From Alphaproteobacteria bacterium (lineage in GTDB: Bacteria; Pseudomonadota; Alphaproteobacteria; UBA828), in the NCBI GenBank assembly GCA_965220745.1, contig CBDCQT010000013.1, positions 896,001 through 960,000 of the forward strand: DNA of 64,000 nucleotides, written 5' to 3'. The translations under genes and the position numbers were made by a program. Under the pieces are notes generated by a model, which worked only from the letters and a program-made list of their open reading frames with translations, did no database searches and was not told the DNA's origin. Each line of letters begins with the position of its first letter. The first letter of the stretch is position 1. Shown here piece by piece: positions 53,341 through 64,000 of the stretch.

Positions 53341-55575
53341 ATGGCGCGAATCGCAGGCGAGGCTGAAACGGAGGGCGCGGTCCACCCCGTGCCGCTCGGC
53401 GATGCGCTGAGCGAACGCTATCTCGCCTACGCGCTCTCCACCATCACCGCGCGCTCGCTGCCGGACGTGCGCGACGGGCTCAAGCCGGTCCAGCGCCGCC
53501 TCCTCTACGCCATGCGGGGGCTGAAGCTCGATCCCGACGCGGGCTTCAAGAAGTGCGCGCGGGTCGTGGGCGATGTGATCGGCAAGTATCACCCCCACGG
53601 CGATTCCGCGGTGTACGACGCCCTGGTGCGGCTCGCGCAGACCTTCGCCGCGCGCTACGCGCTGGTCGAGGGGCAGGGCAACTTCGGCAACGTCGATGGC
53701 GATAACGCCGCGGCCATGCGCTACACCGAGGCGCGGCTCACCGAAGTGGCGCAGGCGCTGCTCGACGGCCTCGATGAGGACGCGGTCGACTTCCGCGAGA
53801 CCTACGACGGCGGCGACAGCGAACCGGTGGTGCTGCCGGCGGCCTTCCCCAACCTGCTCGCGAACGGGGCGACGGGAATCGCCGTGGGCCTCGCCACCAG
53901 CATCCCGCCGCACAATGCCGGCGAGCTCTGCGACGCGCTCACCGCACTGCTCAGGGAACCCAAGCTTGCGGACGATGCCCTGGTGGCGCTCGTGCCGGGC
54001 CCGGATTTTCCGACGGGCGGCGTGCTGGTCGAGGACCGTGAGCAGATTGTCGACGCCTACGCGACAGGGCGCGGCGGCTTCCGGGTCCGCGCCCGCTGGG
54101 AGAAGGAGAGCATCGGCCGCGGCCAGTACCAGATCGTGGTCACCGAGATTCCCTATCAGGTGCAGAAGGCGCGCCTGATCGAGCGCATCGCCGAGCTTCT
54201 GCAGGCCCGCAAACTCGCCCTGCTGGCGGACGTGCGGGACGAATCGGCCGAAGACGTGCGCATCGTGCTGGAGCCCAAGAGCCGCACGGTCGAGGCCGAG
54301 CTGCTGATGGAGATGCTGTTCCGCCAGACAGAGCTGGAGACCCGCATCGGACTCAACATGAACGTGCTGGATGCGGCGGGTGTGCCCCGCGTGATGACAC
54401 TGAAGCAGGTGCTGCAGGCGTTTCTCGATCATCGACGCGAGGTCCTGCTGCGGCGCACCGCCCATCGGCTGGCGGCGATCGCCCACCGGCTCGACGTGCT
54501 CGGCGGCTATCTCGTGGCTTACCTCAACCTGGACGAAGTGATCCGCATCGTCCGCGAGGAGGACGAGCCGAAGTCCGCGCTCGTGGCCGCGTTCGGGATC
54601 AACGACGTGCAGGCCGACGCGATCCTCAACATGCGCCTGCGTGCGCTGCGACGCCTCGAGGAAGCGGCGATCAGGCGCGAGCACGAGGCGCTGGAGGCGG
54701 AGCGCGGCCGGCTCGAGAAGCTCGCGAACAGCACGCGCCGGCAGAAGACCGCGCTCGCCGCCGAGATCGCGGAGATCAAGACGCGCTTCGGGCAGGAGAC
54801 CGTGCTCGGCGCGCGGCGAACCGCCATCGGGGAGGCGCCGCTGCCGCAGGAAGTTCCGGTGGAGGCGCTGGTGGAGCGGGAGCCGATCACGGTGATCTGC
54901 TCGGCGAAGGGGTGGATCCGCGCGGTCAAGGGACATGCCGAGGCGGACACGACGGTGCGCTACAAGGATGGCGACCGCGAGCGCTTCCGCTTCCACGCCG
55001 AGACCACGGACAAGCTGCTGCTCTTCGCCACCAATGGGCGCTTCTACACGCTGGCGGCGGATCGGCTGCCCGGCGGCCGGGGCTTCGGCGAGCCGGTGCG
55101 CCTTATGATCGATCTCGGCAACGATCACGAGGCGGTTGCGCTCTTCGCCCACCGGCCCGGCCGGCGGCTATTGGTGGCGGCGAGCGATGGGCGCGGCTTC
55201 TTCGTCCCCGAGGACGACGTGGTGGCGCAGACCCGCACGGGGCGGCAGGTGCTCAACCCGGCGCAGGGGGCGGAGGCTGCGGTCTGTGTCGAGGCGGCCG
55301 GCGACTGGGTCGCGGTCGTCGGCACCAACCGGCGGCTGGTGATCTTCCCGGCTGCCGAGGTGCCGACCATGGCGCGCGGACGCGGCGTGATCCTGCAGCG
55401 CTACCGCGATGCCGCGCTCTCGGACGCGCAGGTGTTCGACGGCGCGGCGGGGCTGCGCTGGCGCTCGGGCACCGGCGTGCGCACCGAGACGGCGCTGGAG
55501 CAATGGCGCGGCAAGCGCGGCCAGGCGGGACGCGCGGCGCCACGCGGCTTCCCCGCTGCAAACCGTTTTCTCTAG
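53341..55575 (+). CDS. parC: DNA topoisomerase IV subunit A
   Basis: [24 protein letters not shown] and the catalytic Tyr in [10 protein letters not shown]. The CTD has no GyrA box, and the recO-parC order is typical of alphaproteobacteria. Confidence 0.95.
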
Positions 55576-55584
55576 GCGACATCT

Positions 55585-56338
55585 GTGAAGTACGAAAAGA
55601 CCCAACCCGGAAATCCGCATCAACTGACAATTAAACAGCATTGTTTTCCGAAGAAATCAATTGAGAGATTTTGCAACGAGAATGGTGTGGTCGAAGTTTA
55701 CTTGATCGACAAAAACAAAACCGTTCTCATGAAGCCTGACAACGAGATATTCTGCGCACGTAGGGTATGGGATCAGCGTGCGGAAGCGCTATTCATGCAG
55801 GGTATAGAAAATGCATATCAGGATGTTGTAAGCCAATTAGAAGTAGAGGATTGGTCTCGCCGGCTCGGCATTGAGGAAAACCAGACCGTTACAGATATGT
55901 ATTCGCTTTGGCATGTTCGCTGTTGCTGGAAAAATAAGTATCTAAACGATCAAGAATTGCCGGGAGCGCTGCCCGCACGACCGGGGTATTCTCAAGACGA
56001 TAGAGAGGCGCTGGAAAAGAGCAACATGGTGACCTCTATCGACCGTGGTGCAAGTGCCTTTCTGCCCGGTCGTCATATCGCCGGAACCTTGGTTCAAAAC
56101 GATTATGGTCGTGTCAGAAACGCCTTGCGAGGCTATTCGTGGGGAATAGTGCAGAGTGTGTGGAGAATTTATTGTCCCCGACAAAAGCAGTGCTGGACTT
56201 TGCCTGCCTGTTACACCGACGATATATTTTTCCGCTGGACAGGATAATCGTCGAGTCGTCATGAAGTCGGAATTACGCCACATGAATACAGCCCTTAGAT
56301 TAGGCAGTGAACAGTACTACTTTGGCAGAAAGTTGTGA
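55585..56338 (+). pseudogene. DUF4238-like hypothetical protein, apparently frameshifted near 56155-56162
   Basis: AT-rich. N-terminal KQHCFPKKSIERF (QHxxP) motif. After WGIVQS the family-like continuation GEFIVPD...LPVTPTIYF lies in the second ORF, 56156-56338. The junction is GAGTGTGTGGA. Confidence 0.6.
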
Positions 56339-56476
56339 GGTTTGTTTAATTCGGATATGACACCTTTCTGCAATGTAGAAGAAGTTGCAGTGGAGTTCTC
56401 AAAGAATAGTTGGGATCGACGCCTGCGAAACTCTTCATTCAGTACTGGACAGCCGTGTTCTCTGGTTGCAAGCGGG

Positions 56477-56647
56477 TCAGAGCGCCGCGTTCGCGCCTGC
56501 AATGAAGTCGGCCGCGTTCGCCGTCCCTACCGTCAGGAACAGAGCTGCCGCGAGACCGACACTCAACGCGAGAAGCAAGAGCCCGAGGCCGTACGAAACT
56601 CTGCGCCTGTTTCTTCGGTCATCGCTCTGAGTGTGCTGCCAAGGCAC
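56477..56647 (-). pseudogene. 56-aa ORF: signal peptide plus a truncated mature N-terminus (possible Sel1-repeat protein remnant)
   Basis: GTG-started (M)PWQHTQSDDRRNRRRVSYGLGLLLLALSVGLAAALFLTVGTANA-ADFIAGANAAL*. Too short to appear in the supplied ORF track. Confidence 0.4.
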
Positions 56648-57057
56648 CTTTGCCGATGCTATCGCTGCGCGTGCCGCGCAGGTGCCCTGCGTGCCTACGT
56701 TCCATAAAGGCCGGCTCCCGAGGCGGGCTTCGGCGAGAGCTGCCGCGACTGCTTCATTTTCTCCCGTGCAATCACCGGTCGGCAGCCAGTCAGGGCAACG
56801 AGCTACCCACCGTCAGTCGACAAGCGCGTGGTTCACCTGGTGCAACCGTGTCGAACGACGAGGGTTCCATAAGTTATGCCGAGATTCAATCGAATACGAT
56901 ATGCCAATATATCATAAAGCGCAGCGGTCAAGCTCATATGCACCGCGGGTCATGGCGCGGATTTTCGAGCGTCGCTCCACGCACCGACCCGAAACACGTC
57001 GTTATGAAAGCTGAGGTGCCCGCTGAACGGTGGGAGGGCGCGTCCTCTGACGGTGGT

Positions 57058-58943: not shown

Positions 58944-60350
58944 CTAGAGCTCGCCTTCCCGGCGCAACATGCGGATGGTCTCGCGGAAGGCGTCGACGGT
59001 GACGGGGAGATCGTCCGCCGTGTTGGCGGCCGAGGTCATGCCGCCGGGCCAGCCCTGGATGTCCACGCCGTTCACCAGCAGGCCCAAGCGGATCTTGTTG
59101 ACGAGCGCCGGCGGGCGGTCCTTGAGCTCGGCGTAGTCGATCTCGAGCGGATCGAAAGTCGACGGCGTGATCGCGCGTCCGCGCGGGTTCATGAAGAGGT
59201 GGAACGAGGAGAAGGTGCCGTAGACCGACCAGGGGACGCTTTCATCCTCCAGCACCCCGTTGAGCCCGGCCCGAAGCTCGGCGCCGAAGGCCGACGCCCG
59301 CTCGCACGCGTCCGAATCCCGCACGATCTCAAGCGCGGCCGTGCCGGCGGCGGCGGAGACGGGGTTCGCGTTGAAGGTGCCGGGGTGGAAGATCTTCTCG
59401 CGGCCGCTTGCCTTGGTCTCGTAGAAGTCCAGGTCGTCGAGAATCTCCTTGCGCCCGGCCACGGCCCCGCCCGGCAGGCCGCCGGCGATGATCTTGGCGT
59501 GGGTGCTCATGTCGGGCGTGACGCCGAAATACCCCTGCGCGCCACCGGGAGCGACGCGAAAGCCGGTAATCACCTCGTCGAAGATCAGCACCACGCCGTG
59601 ATTCGCCGTGAGCTCCCGCAGGAAGCTCAGAAACTCGAACGCGTGGGGCACGAGCCCGAAGGAGCCGCCGGTCGGCTCCAGAATCGCGGCGGCGATATCG
59701 TCGTTGGCCTCGAAGGCGGTGCGCGCGGCCTCCTTGTCGCCGGGCGGCAGCAGGATCACCTGGGACGCGAGGTCCGGAAGCACGCCGGTCGTTGGCGAAC
59801 CGTCGAAATGCGAGATGTAGCCGGAGGTCATGTGGTCGTGCCAGCCGTGGAAGTGGCCCTTGAAACGCACGATCTTGTGCTTGCCGGTATGCGCGCGGGC
59901 CAGGCGGAGGGCCATGTGCGTCGCCTCGGTGCCGGAGGAGGTGAAGCGCACCCGCTCCGCGCACGGCACCATCTCGCGCACGATCTGCGCCCAGCGCACC
60001 TCGCGCTCGTGGTTGGCGCCGGGATGCGTGCCGTCCGGCAGCGCCTCCTGGATCGCGGCGACCACCTCCGGCCGGCCGTGGCCGAGCAACAGGGCGCCGT
60101 GGCCGCCGGCGTAGTCGACATACTCGTTGTCGTCCCGGTCCCACTTGCGCGAGCCCTCGGCCCGCGTGACGTAGATGCCGTAGGGCTGCATGTGGCGCGC
60201 ATCGTGGACGATGCCGGAGGGCAGGATGTCCCTGGCCTCGGATGCGAGCGCCGCCGAGCCGGGCGTCTTCGTCAGGTAGGCCTGAACGATCCCGGAGTTG
60301 GAGGCGAGCAGGTCGGCGCTCGCCGCCGCCTGTGATGTTGCCGTGTTCAT
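58944..60350 (-). CDS. Class III aminotransferase, glutamate-1-semialdehyde aminomutase-like
   Basis: RFTSSGTEAT, GHFHGWHD, ILEP, LIFDEVITGFR, PLP lysine in HAKIIAGGLP and GTFNANP. Confidence 0.88.
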   Translation of the reverse strand: MNTATSQAAASADLLASNSGIVQAYLTKTPGSAALASEARDILPSGIVHDARHMQPYGIYVTRAEGSRKWDRDDNEYVDYAGGHGALLLGHGRPEVVAAIQEALPDGTHPGANHEREVRWAQIVREMVPCAERVRFTSSGTEATHMALRLARAHTGKHKIVRFKGHFHGWHDHMTSGYISHFDGSPTTGVLPDLASQVILLPPGDKEAARTAFEANDDIAAAILEPTGGSFGLVPHAFEFLSFLRELTANHGVVLIFDEVITGFRVAPGGAQGYFGVTPDMSTHAKIIAGGLPGGAVAGRKEILDDLDFYETKASGREKIFHPGTFNANPVSAAAGTAALEIVRDSDACERASAFGAELRAGLNGVLEDESVPWSVYGTFSSFHLFMNPRGRAITPSTFDPLEIDYAELKDRPPALVNKIRLGLLVNGVDIQGWPGGMTSAANTADDLPVTVDAFRETIRMLRREGEL

Positions 60351-60358
60351 GTCCTGTC

Positions 60359-61081
60359 CTATTCGATGTAGGGATCGACCGCGTCGCGCACGGCCTTGGC
60401 GACCGCGACGGCGCCCGGCGTATCCGAATGGACGCAGATCGTCTCCGCCTTGGTCGGCACGTCCTTGCCGTTGACCGAGCGGATTACGCCGTCCTTCACC
60501 ACGCGCATGATCTGCGCCACCGCCTGTTCCGGCGCCACGGACTTGTGCTCGCGCGTGATGATGCAGCGGCCCTCGTCGTCATAGTCGAGGTCGGCGAAGA
60601 TCTCCCACACGACATCCGCGTACTTGGGCCAGATGGTCTCGTGCATGGTGCCGGTGGTGCCGTACATGGGCACGCCGAAGACCTGTGCCGCCTCGGCGCA
60701 CGCGGTGGCCACGTCTTCGTCGATCCAGGCGGCGCCGTAGAGTGCACCGTGGGGCTTCAGGTGGTTGAGTGTCATCCCCTCCATTTCGAGAAAACCCTTC
60801 AGTGCGCCGCATTGATAGATGATGGCGTCGCGCAGCTCCTTGCGATCCATCTTCATGTAGCGCCGCCCGAAGCCGTCCCGGTCGGGGAACGACGGGTGAG
60901 CCCCCACCTTCACGCCGTGCTTCTTGGCGAGCACGACGGTTTCGTGCATCACGCCGGGGTCCGAGGCATGGAAACCGCAGGCGACGTTGGCCGAGGTGAT
61001 GTAGGGCATGATCGCCTCGTCGTCGCCGCAGGTGTAGATGCTGTAGGCCTCGCCCATGTCGCAGTTGATGTCGATCCCCAT
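60359..61081 (-). CDS. pxpA: LamB/YcsF family protein (5-oxoprolinase subunit A-like)
   Basis: DINCDMGE, ANVACGFHASDP, GAHPSFPD..GFGRR, KPHGALY and TICVHSDTPGA. Start re-picked at MGIDIN. Confidence 0.88.
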   Translation of the reverse strand: MGIDINCDMGEAYSIYTCGDDEAIMPYITSANVACGFHASDPGVMHETVVLAKKHGVKVGAHPSFPDRDGFGRRYMKMDRKELRDAIIYQCGALKGFLEMEGMTLNHLKPHGALYGAAWIDEDVATACAEAAQVFGVPMYGTTGTMHETIWPKYADVVWEIFADLDYDDEGRCIITREHKSVAPEQAVAQIMRVVKDGVIRSVNGKDVPTKAETICVHSDTPGAVAVAKAVRDAVDPYIE

Positions 61082-61291
61082 GGTCTCCCCCTGCCGTTCC
61101 GTCGCCTCTCCGCCCTCAGTCACGGGTGAGTAACGAGGACTGTCCGTCAAACGTAGCAGGATTGTTTCCCAATCTCGATTCCGTAGCCGTCGACCGTAGC
61201 CGGCGACCTTGCCGAGTCCTGTGGCGGCCCCGTGGCTTTTCGCTCTGTGGCCGTGTGGTTATATGGCGAACGAGTCGGACCCCGAGTCGCA

Positions 61292-62104
61292 ATGAATGCG
61301 CCTGCCGATGCCGTGACCAAGATTGGTCGTCGAGTGACGCGTGAACTCGACCGGTTGAAGAAGTATCGACTGGCGGCCGGACTCCTTTCCTTCGCCAGCC
61401 TCGTGCTCGGCACGCTTCGCGATCTGGCGCCGATCATCGCCGTGGTCGCAGTATTCCAGGTCGCGATCCTGCGCCAACCCTTCCCCGATCTTGGCGGCAT
61501 CGTCGGCGGTCTCGTGCTCGTAATGCTTGGGCTCGCGCTCTTCATCAAGGGCCTGGAGATGGGCCTCTTCCCGCTCGGCGAGGGTCTGGCCCAGGGGTTT
61601 GCCCAAAAGGGGAGCCTGTTCTGGCTTCTCGTCTTCGCCTTCGCGCTCGGCTTCGGAACTACCGTCGCGGAGCCTGCGCTGATCGCCGTCACGGCGGAGG
61701 CCGCCCGGGTCGCCGCCGACGCCGGAGTCGTCGCGGCCAATGCGGACGCCATGGACTCCTATGCCCTCGGGCTACGCTACACGGTCGCCGTCTCGGTCGG
61801 CGTCGGTATCACGCTCGGTGTGCTCCGTATCCTCAAGGGCTGGCCGCTCCACTACTGGATCATCGGCGGCTACATCATCGCCGTCGGCCTCACCTTCATC
61901 GCGCCCGACGAGATCGTCGGCATCGCCTACGATTCCGGCGGGGTCACGACGTCCACCATCACCGTGCCCATGGTGACGGCCCTCGGCGTCGGCCTGGCCG
62001 CGTCGATCCGCGGGCGCAACCCGCTGGTCGACGGCTTCGGGCTCATCGCCTACGCGAGCCTCACGCCCATCATCTTCGTGCTCATCTTCGGCATGGTGAC
62101 TTAG
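61292..62104 (+). CDS. DUF1538 family membrane protein (first copy)
   Basis: [38 protein letters not shown] and DGFGLIA, with multiple TM helices. Start is uncertain. Confidence 0.88.
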
Positions 62105-62115
62105 GGCGCGGCGCG

Positions 62116-62358
62116 ATGGAGTTGATCTCTCTCATACTGTCCGCCGGCCTCGATACGGTGCAGGACGTTGCCCCGCTGGTCGCTGCACTCGGCCTCGGCC
62201 TTGCCGCCAATGTGCCTGGGCGAAGCCCTCTGTTCGACGGCTTCGGACCCATCGCCTTCGCCAGCGTGTTCCCAATCATTGCCGTGCTGGGCTACGCCCA
62301 GCTCTCGTCGGCGCTTGAGAGTGCTCAAGAGCGCCGCCGCAGGCGTGGTCGCGCCTGA
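62116..62358 (+). pseudogene. Internally deleted DUF1538 paralog (80 aa, in frame)
   Basis: N-terminal GLDTVQDVAPL is joined directly to C-terminal VAALGLGLAANVPGRSPLFDGFG. Both halves match the ends of 62393-63181. Confidence 0.75.
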
Positions 62359-62392
62359 TGCGGATGCTCATCACGGCCTTCCGAGGTGCGGC

Positions 62393-63181
62393 ATGGTAGA
62401 CATTCTTGTCGTTCTGCCATCCGTCGGCCTCGATACGGTGCGCGACATCGTGCCGCTGCTCGCCATCGTGCTGTTCTTCCAGATCGTCGTCCTGCGCCAG
62501 CGCCCGGCGAATCTCGGTCGGATCGTGGTCGGCTTCGTCTATGTCGTCGTCGGACTCGTGCTGTTCCTCATCGGGCTGGAAGAGGCGCTCTTCCCTCTCG
62601 GCAAGACGATGGCCGCCCAACTGACCGACCCGGCCTTCCTCGGCCTTGCGGCGGGCGCTACCGCTCATTGGCTCGACTATGGCTGGATCTACGCCTTCGC
62701 GGCGGCCATCGGCTTCGGCACCACCATCGCGGAGCCGTCGCTCATGGCCGTTGCGCGCAAGGCCGGCGCCGTCTCGGGCGGGACGATCAACCCCTGGGGT
62801 CTAAGGATTGCCGTTGCCGCGGGCGTTGCCGTCGGCGTCGGGGTGGGGACCGTCCGCATCGTCACCGGGATACCGCTCCACTATCTGTTCATGGGCGCCT
62901 ATGCGCTCGTGATCCTGCTGACGATCTTCGCCTCGCGCAGCATCATCGCGCTCGCCTACGATTCGGGCGGCGTCACGTCGTCGACCGTGACCGTGCCGCT
63001 GGTGGCCGCCTTGGGGCTCGGCCTCGCCGCCAACGTGCCGGGGCGCAGCCCAATGCTCGATGGCTTCGGCCTTATCGCGTTCGCATGTGTGTTTGCCGTC
63101 ATCGCTGTGCTGGGGTTTACCCAGCTTTCGTCGGCGCTCGCCGCCCTGCGCAAGCGCCGATCATCCGGGAAAGGAACCTGA
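62393..63181 (+). CDS. DUF1538 family membrane protein (second copy)
   Basis: [37 protein letters not shown] and DGFGLIA. Start re-picked at MVDILV with a GAGGT RBS. Confidence 0.88.
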   Translation: MVDILVVLPSVGLDTVRDIVPLLAIVLFFQIVVLRQRPANLGRIVVGFVYVVVGLVLFLIGLEEALFPLGKTMAAQLTDPAFLGLAAGATAHWLDYGWIYAFAAAIGFGTTIAEPSLMAVARKAGAVSGGTINPWGLRIAVAAGVAVGVGVGTVRIVTGIPLHYLFMGAYALVILLTIFASRSIIALAYDSGGVTSSTVTVPLVAALGLGLAANVPGRSPMLDGFGLIAFACVFAVIAVLGFTQLSSALAALRKRRSSGKGT

Positions 63182-63184
63182 ACG

Positions 63185-63535
63185 ATGCGTTTCAAGCTCA
63201 TCATGGCGCTCGTGGATTCGGGCGAGACCGATGCCGTTCTCGCCGCCGGCCGTCGCACCGGGGCGACCGGTGCTACAATCATCACCGGCTGCCGCGGCGA
63301 GGGGCTCGAGCCGCAGCAAACCTTTCTCGGCTTGCGGCTGACTGGCCAGCGCGACATCGTGATGTTCCTCGTGGAAGAGCATATGAGCCGCAACGTCCTT
63401 GAGGAGATTGCGACGGCCGGGGCCTTCGAGGAGAAGTCAGGGACGGGGATCGCGTTCCAGATTGCCATCGAAGACGCGATCGGCCTTTCCCATCAGATCG
63501 CCGAGATCAAGCACGAGATCGAGGACCAGATATGA
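63185..63535 (+). CDS. PII-like (GlnB superfamily) signal protein
   Basis: 116 aa with KLIMALVD, GATGATII..RGEG and the B-loop GTGIAF. No GlnB Tyr51-type T-loop motif. Confidence 0.85.
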   Translation: MRFKLIMALVDSGETDAVLAAGRRTGATGATIITGCRGEGLEPQQTFLGLRLTGQRDIVMFLVEEHMSRNVLEEIATAGAFEEKSGTGIAFQIAIEDAIGLSHQIAEIKHEIEDQI

Positions 63536-63990
63536 GCAGGAAGGCAAACACGGCCACGGCAGAAGCGCAGGGTGCGCAGCTCAACACGGTGCGCGCGGTG
63601 ATGTCGCCGATGCCGGCGCCGATCAACGGCGTGGCCACGGTGCACGAGGCTCTCCAAGTGATGCGCGAGAACAACGTGTACTCGCTCGTGGTCGAGCGCC
63701 GTCGGCCCGGCGACGAGTACGGCATGGTCGTGATCTCCGATATCGCCAACAAGGTGATCGCGGACAACCGCTCGCCCGACCGGGTGAATGTCTACGAGAT
63801 CATGTCGAAGCCGGTGCTCACCATCAGCGCAGACATGGAGATCAAGTACGCCATCCGCCTGCTCGGCCGCTTCGGCCTGTCGCGCAGCGTGGTGGTCGAC
63901 GGCAACGAGGCGGTCGGCTTCGTCACGCTGACCGACATGGTCTTTCGCTACTACGAGCAGGAAGCGAGGCGGCAAGAGGCGAGCGGGTAG
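63532..63990 (+). CDS. Stand-alone CBS-pair (Bateman module) protein
   Basis: VRAVMSP...ATVHEALQVM...YGMVVISDI and VYEIMSKPVLTI...GFVTLTD. ATGA overlap with the PII-like gene. Confidence 0.88.
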   Translation: MSRKANTATAEAQGAQLNTVRAVMSPMPAPINGVATVHEALQVMRENNVYSLVVERRRPGDEYGMVVISDIANKVIADNRSPDRVNVYEIMSKPVLTISADMEIKYAIRLLGRFGLSRSVVVDGNEAVGFVTLTDMVFRYYEQEARRQEASG

Positions 63991-64000
63991 GCCGGACGCA

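Follow-up and report, generated by a model that had tools for sequence, protein, structure and literature searches.

We analyzed a locus near the 3′ end of a 64,000-nucleotide stretch of an Alphaproteobacteria bacterium genome (assembly GCA_965220745.1, contig CBDCQT010000013.1, positions 896,001 to 960,000 of the forward strand; hereafter “the window”, to which all unprefixed coordinates refer), where two membrane proteins of the DUF1538 family are encoded together with a PII-like protein and a stand-alone CBS pair. The open reading frame (ORF) map shows five ORFs at this locus, all on the + strand. The first (61292–62104) encodes a UmpA-like DUF1538 membrane subunit of 270 amino acids (aa) with a K/R-rich N-terminal extension (Pfam DUF1538, 220.5 bits), and the third (62393–63181) a UmpB-like DUF1538 membrane subunit of 262 aa whose C-terminal tail is rich in K/R (Pfam DUF1538, 211.8 bits). 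These are followed by a non-canonical PII-like gene (63185–63535; 116 aa; Pfam P-II, 33.3 bits for a cut-off of 25) and by the gene for the stand-alone CBS pair, i.e., a Bateman module (63532–63990; 152 aa; Pfam CBS, two stretches, 59.1 bits). The ORF map and the Pfam matches bear out the four + strand genes that an earlier note, made from the sequence alone, had placed at these coordinates. That note passed over the second ORF (62116–62358), which lies in the 288-nt interval separating the full-length DUF1538 genes and encodes an 80-aa DUF1538 remnant of umpB type matching profile positions 159–209 only (Pfam DUF1538, 41.9 bits).

The last three genes are closely spaced. The UmpB-like gene ends in a TGA stop at 63179–63181 and the PII-like gene starts with an ATG at 63185, leaving a 3-nt gap, and the two genes lie in one frame with a stop and one codon between them. 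The PII-like and CBS genes overlap by 4 nt in an ATGA at 63532–63535. Gap and overlap are both read in the DNA as the earlier note had described them, and a Shine-Dalgarno-like purine-rich sequence stands ahead of the PII-like start and of the CBS start. Judging by the nucleotide sequence, the CBS gene is translationally coupled to the PII-like gene, and the 3-nt gap points to such coupling between the UmpB-like and PII-like genes as well.

Homologues of the UmpAB antiporter

The UmpA-like and UmpB-like window proteins share 47% identity across 233 aligned positions, and each covers the DUF1538 profile (PF07556) nearly in full (positions 1–211 and 2–208, respectively). The statement in the earlier note that DUF1538 has no assigned substrate is refuted by the UmpAB antiporter (PMC5484666), whose name is also borne by two NCBIfam models (NF041627 for UmpA and NF041628 for UmpB). 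In 2017, Meng et al. described UmpAB from Halomonas zhaodongensis as an antiporter of heterodimeric type that exchanges Na+(Li+, K+) for H+: umpAB was cloned through complementation of E. coli KNabc, umpA and umpB were both required, the two proteins co-immunoprecipitate, and everted vesicles displayed Na+, Li+, and K+/H+ antiport with K0.5 values of 0.26–0.46 mM and an optimum at pH 9 (PMC5484666). Since a DUF1538 function has been published for UmpAB, the description “uncharacterised transporter” falls under the clause in which the earlier note itself named an existing characterization as a ground for refutation. The cloned Halomonas fragment stopped at umpB, and the terms P-II, PII, and CBS appear nowhere in that paper (PMC5484666). 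The literature searched, with subscription journals outside its scope, yielded no description of a PII or CBS link to DUF1538 or UmpAB. In a machine-learning study, PF07556 is listed among key pH-adaptation genes, beside other cation transporters (PMC13255231).

The window locus has several features in common with UmpAB: the Pfam family, the pairing of adjacent paralogues with the A type first, a hydrophilic C-terminal tail on the UmpB-type subunit, and shared motifs. It differs from UmpAB in the extra remnant of a third subunit gene. Each window subunit scores better with the NCBIfam model of its own subunit, at 356.9 bits for the UmpA-like product (equivalog cut-off of 490) and 304.9 bits for the UmpB-like product (equivalog cut-off of 500). 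These cut-offs were reached by none of 401 genomes sampled from the phylum, the best score outside the equivalog clade being about 390 bits. Judged by these scores, the window pair are homologues of UmpAB, not equivalogs.

Subunit orientation was assessed through the K+R bias of extramembrane regions (N-terminal side minus the other side) in alignments of 66 UmpA-type and 67 UmpB-type proteins, using a seven-segment scheme that combines the helices of an AlphaFold2 model with the seven membrane segments predicted by Meng et al. (PMC5484666). UmpA-type proteins displayed a mean bias of +6.09 and were positive in 66 of 66 cases, and UmpB-type proteins displayed a mean bias of −5.66, negative in 66 of 67 cases and zero in the remaining one. 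The two window proteins followed the same pattern (first subunit, +7; second subunit, −7), which is the outcome expected from the opposite orientation that the earlier note had proposed to test. Under the positive-inside rule, such opposite biases amount to an antiparallel signature, i.e., UmpA N-in/C-out and UmpB N-out/C-in, and suggest that UmpA-type and UmpB-type subunits are antiparallel. This arrangement agrees with the linker found in fused forms and with the UmpB C-terminus being the site of a PII domain in the cytoplasm (see below). Sections 11–13 of the UmpAB paper contain no orientation analysis (PMC5484666).

The AlphaFold2 model of the UmpA-like protein is all-helical, with a mean predicted local distance difference test score (pLDDT) of 89.2. 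In this model, the conserved polar motifs GTT(V/I)AEP and YDSGGVT(T/S)ST are located at breaks between helix pairs, which in the UmpA-like protein carry GTTVAEP and a second stretch of 10 residues. The motifs listed in the earlier note are all present, namely GTTVAEP, two longer stretches of 18 and 15 residues, and GTGIAF of the PII-like protein. A natural fused DUF1538x2 protein (locus L097, 495 aa) was modeled with a pLDDT of 91.5 and a predicted TM-score of 0.90. The underlying alignment was built from diverse fused representatives.

Neither model matched a solved structure convincingly. For the UmpA-like model, the best Foldseek hit in the PDB had an E-value of 0.22, and a VIA-align search of 48,161 chains gave a best Z of 6.0 (86 residues, root-mean-square deviation (rmsd) of 3.2), which is within helical-protein noise. 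For the fused model, the best Foldseek E-value was 0.013 at a TM-score of 0.14–0.15, and the best VIA-align Z over the same number of chains was 6.7, likewise within helical-protein noise. Foldseek TM-scores of both models against solved structures went up to about 0.23, and the UmpA-like sequence found no match better than E 0.93 among solved structures. As modeled, these confident predictions thus match no solved fold, which does not by itself prove a new one. A complex prediction for the UmpA-like protein, the UmpB-like protein, and one PII-like chain scored 0.00 in both runs and is evidence neither way.

Kinship with the CaCA (Na+/Ca2+ exchanger) family was considered as well. GTTVAEP of DUF1538 shows a motif-level likeness to the G-T-S-x-P-E of CaCA alpha-repeats, and NCX_Mj turned up weakly in the structural search (Z 5.8, rmsd 6.5 over 159 residues), a hit that lies within noise and can serve as a lead only. 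This hit and the similarity between GTTVAEP and the CaCA motif GTS(L/M)PE prompted a profile comparison with Na_Ca_ex (PF01699). The best local hhalign match there sets a 10-residue stretch of DUF1538 against AFGTSAPELV, with the preceding helix aligned too. At hhalign probabilities of 1.1% and 0.3%, CaCA kinship of DUF1538 is unsupported.

A conserved four-gene unit

We retrieved 80 loci with the PII-like profile from a species-representative genome collection, a sample that is skewed to close kin of the PII-like protein, with identities of 53% or more. A CBS gene was found directly 3′ of the PII-like gene in 79 of these 80 loci, the remaining one being a contig end. Directly 5′ of the PII-like gene, a UmpB-type gene was present in 76 loci, while the others comprised three contig starts and one locus with broken DUF1538 pieces. 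Further 5′, 72 loci carried a UmpA-type gene, and the remaining 8 contigs end earlier. The loci are labeled as Alpha-, Beta-, and Gammaproteobacteria, along with two metagenome-assembled genomes (MAGs) of Actinomycetota, one Latescibacterota MAG, and one Flavobacteriales MAG. This order, conserved elsewhere, excludes chance adjacency of the four genes. The commonest flanking genes, which are of housekeeping kind (SDR, FolB, AmpD/AmpE-like, NadC, UvrB/UvrC), occurred in at most 16 of the 80 loci, and since the flanks are not conserved, umpA-umpB-PII-CBS is the unit.

Co-occurrence was evaluated in the 401 genomes of the phylum sample, with the PII type scored at E ≤ 1e-8. DUF1538 was detected in 152 genomes and the PII type in 137, i.e., 129 genomes encoded both, 23 DUF1538 only, 8 the PII type only, and 241 neither. 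Two of the 23 “DUF1538 only” genomes (G079 and G127) were found to carry a more divergent PII-like gene, and with it a CBS gene, beside a fused DUF1538x2 gene. In a second sample, consisting of 301 genomes from another order, a single genome (G616) reached the UmpB equivalog cut-off, with 500.1 bits against 500. Its locus (L092) reads PII-like, umpA, umpB, PII-like, CBS, and then another DUF1538 gene. Given the PII-like and CBS genes directly downstream of umpB in G616, the characterized UmpAB subfamily shares these partners. A rearranged cassette with the order CBS-PII-umpA-umpB was observed at locus L095. Extended or tandem cassettes occur in some genomes (L092, L093, and L099 of G229), one tandem locus reading fused DUF1538x2, PII, CBS, PII, umpA, umpB. 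There is one PII-like gene per cassette, also in tandem cassettes and in the fused subfamily.

In this fused subfamily, with named members in Marinobacter, Halomonas, Nitrincola, and others, the two subunits form one DUF1538x2 protein of ~495 aa, with an acidic, non-hydrophobic linker of about 30 residues between the halves. At all five loci examined, the fused gene is followed by a divergent PII-like gene (35–39 bits) and a CBS gene (68–75 bits). Fusions with the PII domain itself were identified among 150 cluster representatives listed from a search with the fused protein. P0242 (659 aa) combines DUF1538x2 with a Pfam P-II domain at residues 543–637, and P0253, P0255, and P0256 consist of DUF1538, ~45 residues, and then a PII-like domain (71–76 bits with a hidden Markov model built from locus translations), while P0344 and P0286 are weaker candidates. 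The PII domain of these fusions is positioned at the C-terminus of the UmpB-type subunit. Some of the DUF1538-PII fusions could be gene-calling read-throughs; counter to this, several distinct clusters are fused, and their linker matches the tail of UmpB. Other additions to DUF1538x2 were a cytidylate-kinase-like/AAA part in P0243, an N-terminal methyltransferase (Cons_hypoth95) in P0308, and LemA in P0363, each of which may be a true fusion or a gene-calling artefact.

The linkage might alternatively be inherited synteny among kin, with no functional meaning: many of the genomes are related, one family dominates the phylum sample, and the 80 loci were picked by similarity to the PII-like protein. 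However, the order is kept despite varying flanks across Alpha-, Beta-, and Gammaproteobacteria, Actinomycetota, Latescibacterota, and Flavobacteriales, the linkage persists in split, fused, and rearranged (L095) forms, and domain fusions between DUF1538 and PII exist. We consider inherited synteny alone very improbable. Gene order, co-occurrence, and DUF1538-PII fusions instead favor an ion transporter of heteromeric build that has the PII-like and CBS proteins as partners, as the earlier note had proposed.

Putative regulators and a candidate gating mechanism

The PII-like protein matches PF00543 over profile positions 2–97 of 102, above the gathering score, and scored 32.7 bits in a genome-wide search. 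A total of 6398 homologues were found, nearly all of 116 aa among the matches listed. Similarity to solved PII proteins is weak (best E 0.027), and an ESM Atlas look-up returned only P-II clusters of its own kind. Across 23 PII-like sequences (59–90% identity), 35 columns are invariant, including T46, F47, G49, L50, R56, and D57 in the T-loop region, as would be expected for a fixed partner. Canonical PII proteins of the GlnB/GlnK type carry a modifiable T-loop residue, Tyr51 or Ser49. In the window protein, residues 37–57 contain no Tyr, consistent with the absence of a uridylylatable Tyr motif asserted in the earlier note, and the loop holds no Tyr or Ser modification motif. The genome has a canonical GlnB of its own (L110:1480–1818), which adjoins glnA.

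For the CBS protein, the closest solved sequence is CBS-CP12 (PDB 5nmu, E 1.2e-19), and the similarity to 5nmu and to Ta0289 (PDB 1pvm and 2qh1, E 2e-15) spans the whole Bateman module. Unlike CBS-CP12 and Ta0289, it has no CP12 or zinc-ribbon extension, and its genomic partner is the transporter-PII pair.

PII proteins GlnK and SbtB gate the adjacently encoded transporters AmtB and SbtA. The cassette resembles GlnK-AmtB and SbtB-SbtA in having a small PII-fold gene in a transporter operon, a conserved T-loop, and a near-obligate linkage. Its transporter is neither Amt nor SbtA, Pfam giving DUF1538 only, so that the cassette is not a member of these systems and may work alike. In contrast to both, it adds a CBS protein, and its PII-like protein, by alignment, lacks the canonical nucleotide-binding residues.

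On balance, and with modest confidence, we favor a UmpAB-family cation/proton antiporter for which a dedicated PII-like protein would act as the gate and the CBS protein as a further sensor. Specifically, the DUF1538 paralogues would assemble into an antiparallel heterodimer acting as a secondary monovalent cation/proton antiporter, in which each subunit would contribute to the ion/proton binding sites through two helix-break motifs with conserved residues of acidic and hydroxyl type, the acidic ones being Glu in TT(V/I)AEP and Asp in YDSGGVT. The PII-like protein, presumably a trimer as in other PII proteins, would be the dedicated cytoplasmic regulator, docking at the cytoplasmic face beside the K/R-rich tail in which the UmpB-type subunit ends. 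By analogy with GlnK for AmtB and SbtB for SbtA, its T-loop would open or block transport. The CBS pair, which is less universal, would be a further sensor that most likely responds to adenine nucleotides, with either the transporter or the PII-like protein as its target. A broader proposal, which we put forward as possible though doubtful, is that the antiparallel DUF1538 heterodimer (an inverted repeat where fused) represents an unsolved fold and, after Amt and SbtA, a third family with its own PII-type gate. This gate, without a canonical ATP/2-oxoglutarate site, would read some other signal and, together with the CBS protein, couple Na+/K+/pH homeostasis to the metabolic state.

Several observations weigh against a PII-gated antiporter of this kind. 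The window proteins are well under the equivalog cut-offs, and the substrate assignment comes from one study in a heterologous host (PMC5484666). Because UmpAB was active in E. coli without PII-like and CBS genes, these partners appear dispensable for transport itself, and their regulatory role is one that we infer. The counted genomes are interrelated, so that the co-occurrence figures overstate independence. At four of four loci of one family (L102–L105), no CBS match was found in the 0.9–1.3 kb fetched 3′ of PII, L094 was likewise without a CBS match in the DNA fetched downstream of PII, and none of the 150 representatives listed showed a CBS fusion. With regard to topology, an antiparallel pair requires an odd number of membrane crossings, while an even number would allow a parallel pair; in addition, internal loops alone gave a strong UmpA-type bias and only a weak opposite bias for the UmpB type, the bias of the latter being owed largely to its tail and first loop. 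Finally, in an alignment with GlnB, for which the hhalign probability was only 46%, the B-loop GDGKIF is replaced by GTGIAF in the PII-like protein (Lys to Ile, Asp to Thr), the C-terminal RIR (Arg-x-Arg) aligns to GLS, and the Arg-Gln at the base of the T-loop becomes Leu-Glu. The corresponding GlnB/GlnK positions, i.e., the B-loop, the C-terminal Arg-x-Arg, and Arg38/Gln39, are those we take to bind ATP, ADP, and 2-oxoglutarate, and these alterations make canonical binding of the three ligands by the PII-like protein doubtful. The dual adenylate-sensing control inferred in the earlier note is conjectural, and has a firmer footing in the CBS protein, given its solved relative CBS-CP12, than in the PII-like protein.

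The low equivalog scores, as well as functional data that comprise one complementation and vesicle study (PMC5484666), would also fit a DUF1538 pair that moves another solute in vivo, e.g., a Na+-coupled anion like bicarbonate or a different small solute. In that case, the antiport observed in E. coli would be secondary, and the PII-like protein would tie uptake to carbon/energy status as in SbtB-SbtA. Many of the 80 loci do come from sulfur- or methane-oxidisers (Thiohalomonadaceae, Sedimenticolaceae, Methylococcales, Halothiobacillaceae, and a tubeworm endosymbiont), and the established PII-transporter pairs, AmtB-GlnK and SbtA-SbtB, are nutrient uptake systems. Yet the carriers also include heterotrophs (Shewanella and Thalassotalea; for the fused form, Marinobacter and Halomonas), no recurrent carbon-fixation or carbonic-anhydrase neighbor was seen in the 80 loci, the conserved membrane-embedded Glu and Asp suit cation/proton binding, and the machine-learning study counts PF07556 as a key pH-adaptation gene (PMC13255231). 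Transport of another solute is, in our assessment, unlikely.

A different possibility is that the PII-like protein does not act as a gate. The transporter might instead sequester it to control a cytoplasmic target, much as GlnK is sequestered in an AmtB-dependent manner, or the PII-like and CBS proteins might be assembly or stability factors. At four loci (L138–L141, in G010, G130, G030, and G118), a paralogue of the PII-like protein (E ~1e-23 to 1e-25) stands alone, away from DUF1538. Its neighbors include an SH3-domain gene in L138 and L141 and an amino-acid-kinase gene in L139 and L141, while L140 has neither; the kinase neighbor recalls the PII-NAGK pairing. Such neighbors, found with no transporter in two of the four loci (L139 and L141), indicate that PII-like proteins of the wider group may have soluble targets, and the activity of UmpAB in E. 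coli without PII-like and CBS proteins (PMC5484666) is compatible with a role other than gating. However, the PII domain is permanently tied to the transporter in the covalent DUF1538-PII fusions, which speaks more for a built-in gate than for a shuttling signal. Each cassette has its own PII-like gene, tandem and fused ones included, and the 80 loci contain no conserved third-party target gene nearby. We thus give sequestration or an assembly role only a small chance compared to gating of a UmpAB-type antiporter.

Locus history, surroundings, and significance

The remnant at 62116–62358 joins ~21 N-terminal codons to ~59 C-terminal codons of umpB type, as seen in its alignment to the UmpB-like product, and is thereby an internally deleted gene, probably a decaying pseudogene. 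In a survey of the genus, the region was matched in all 21 genomes, and 14 loci were fetched, that of the window genome included. An intact second umpB copy occupies the position of the remnant in five of these 14 loci (G706, G710, G728, G726, and G715), the middle copy is damaged in varied ways in four (the window genome, G711, G712, and G716), and umpA and umpB occur without any middle copy in the other five. The coexistence of intact, damaged, and absent middle copies indicates a tandem duplication of umpB that arose within the genus and is decaying in the window genome. A contig of public run X5 carries the same joint (62182 to 62356) as G716. For window positions 61100–63990, public runs X4, X5, X7, and X20 yielded contigs in short pieces at 88–99% likeness (mostly 90–99%), from several related strains, and runs labeled as sponge metagenomes contain about half of the sampled words of the stretch. 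Contigs from the RNA-library run X20 extend across most of the cassette, the presence of contigs not being proof of transcription.

Upstream of the cassette, a presumed promoter region (61151–61291) lies between the first DUF1538 gene and a divergent pxpA/LamB_YcsF-type gene (60359–61150, − strand), which is accompanied by a class-III aminotransferase gene. A consensus promoter scan upstream of the cassette found no sigma-70-like site, and a consensus scan for terminators gave one terminator-like hairpin (61219–61235), a count within chance expectation. No family was matched in an Rfam scan of 60300–64000 at E ≤ 1. Just beyond the window end, on the same strand as the cassette, an SDR gene begins 24 nt past the CBS stop and is overlapped by folB by 4 nt (L005:5014–6167, +), after which opposite-strand genes follow. 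SDR and folB may be co-transcribed with the cassette, though they are housekeeping-like in appearance; SDR and FolB genes recur downstream in about 14–16 of the 80 loci. Elsewhere in the window, a stretch of ~1.1 kb (55500–56700) between a topoisomerase IV/gyrase A-type gene (53341–55575) and biotin-synthesis genes has a G+C content near 0.50, compared to near 0.70 in the rest of the window. Its ORFs have no Pfam match and the stretch no Rfam match, and it may be foreign or non-coding DNA.

The post-synthesis regulation of bacterial Na+/H+ and K+/H+ antiporters is poorly understood, and PII gating is on record for only a few transporter families. The DUF1538 antiporter family is widespread and almost always comes with its own PII-like gene, usually also with a CBS gene, and its cassette offers a testable new PII-transporter pair. 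For genome annotation, proteins of this type that are called “nitrogen regulatory protein P-II” are probably not nitrogen regulators.

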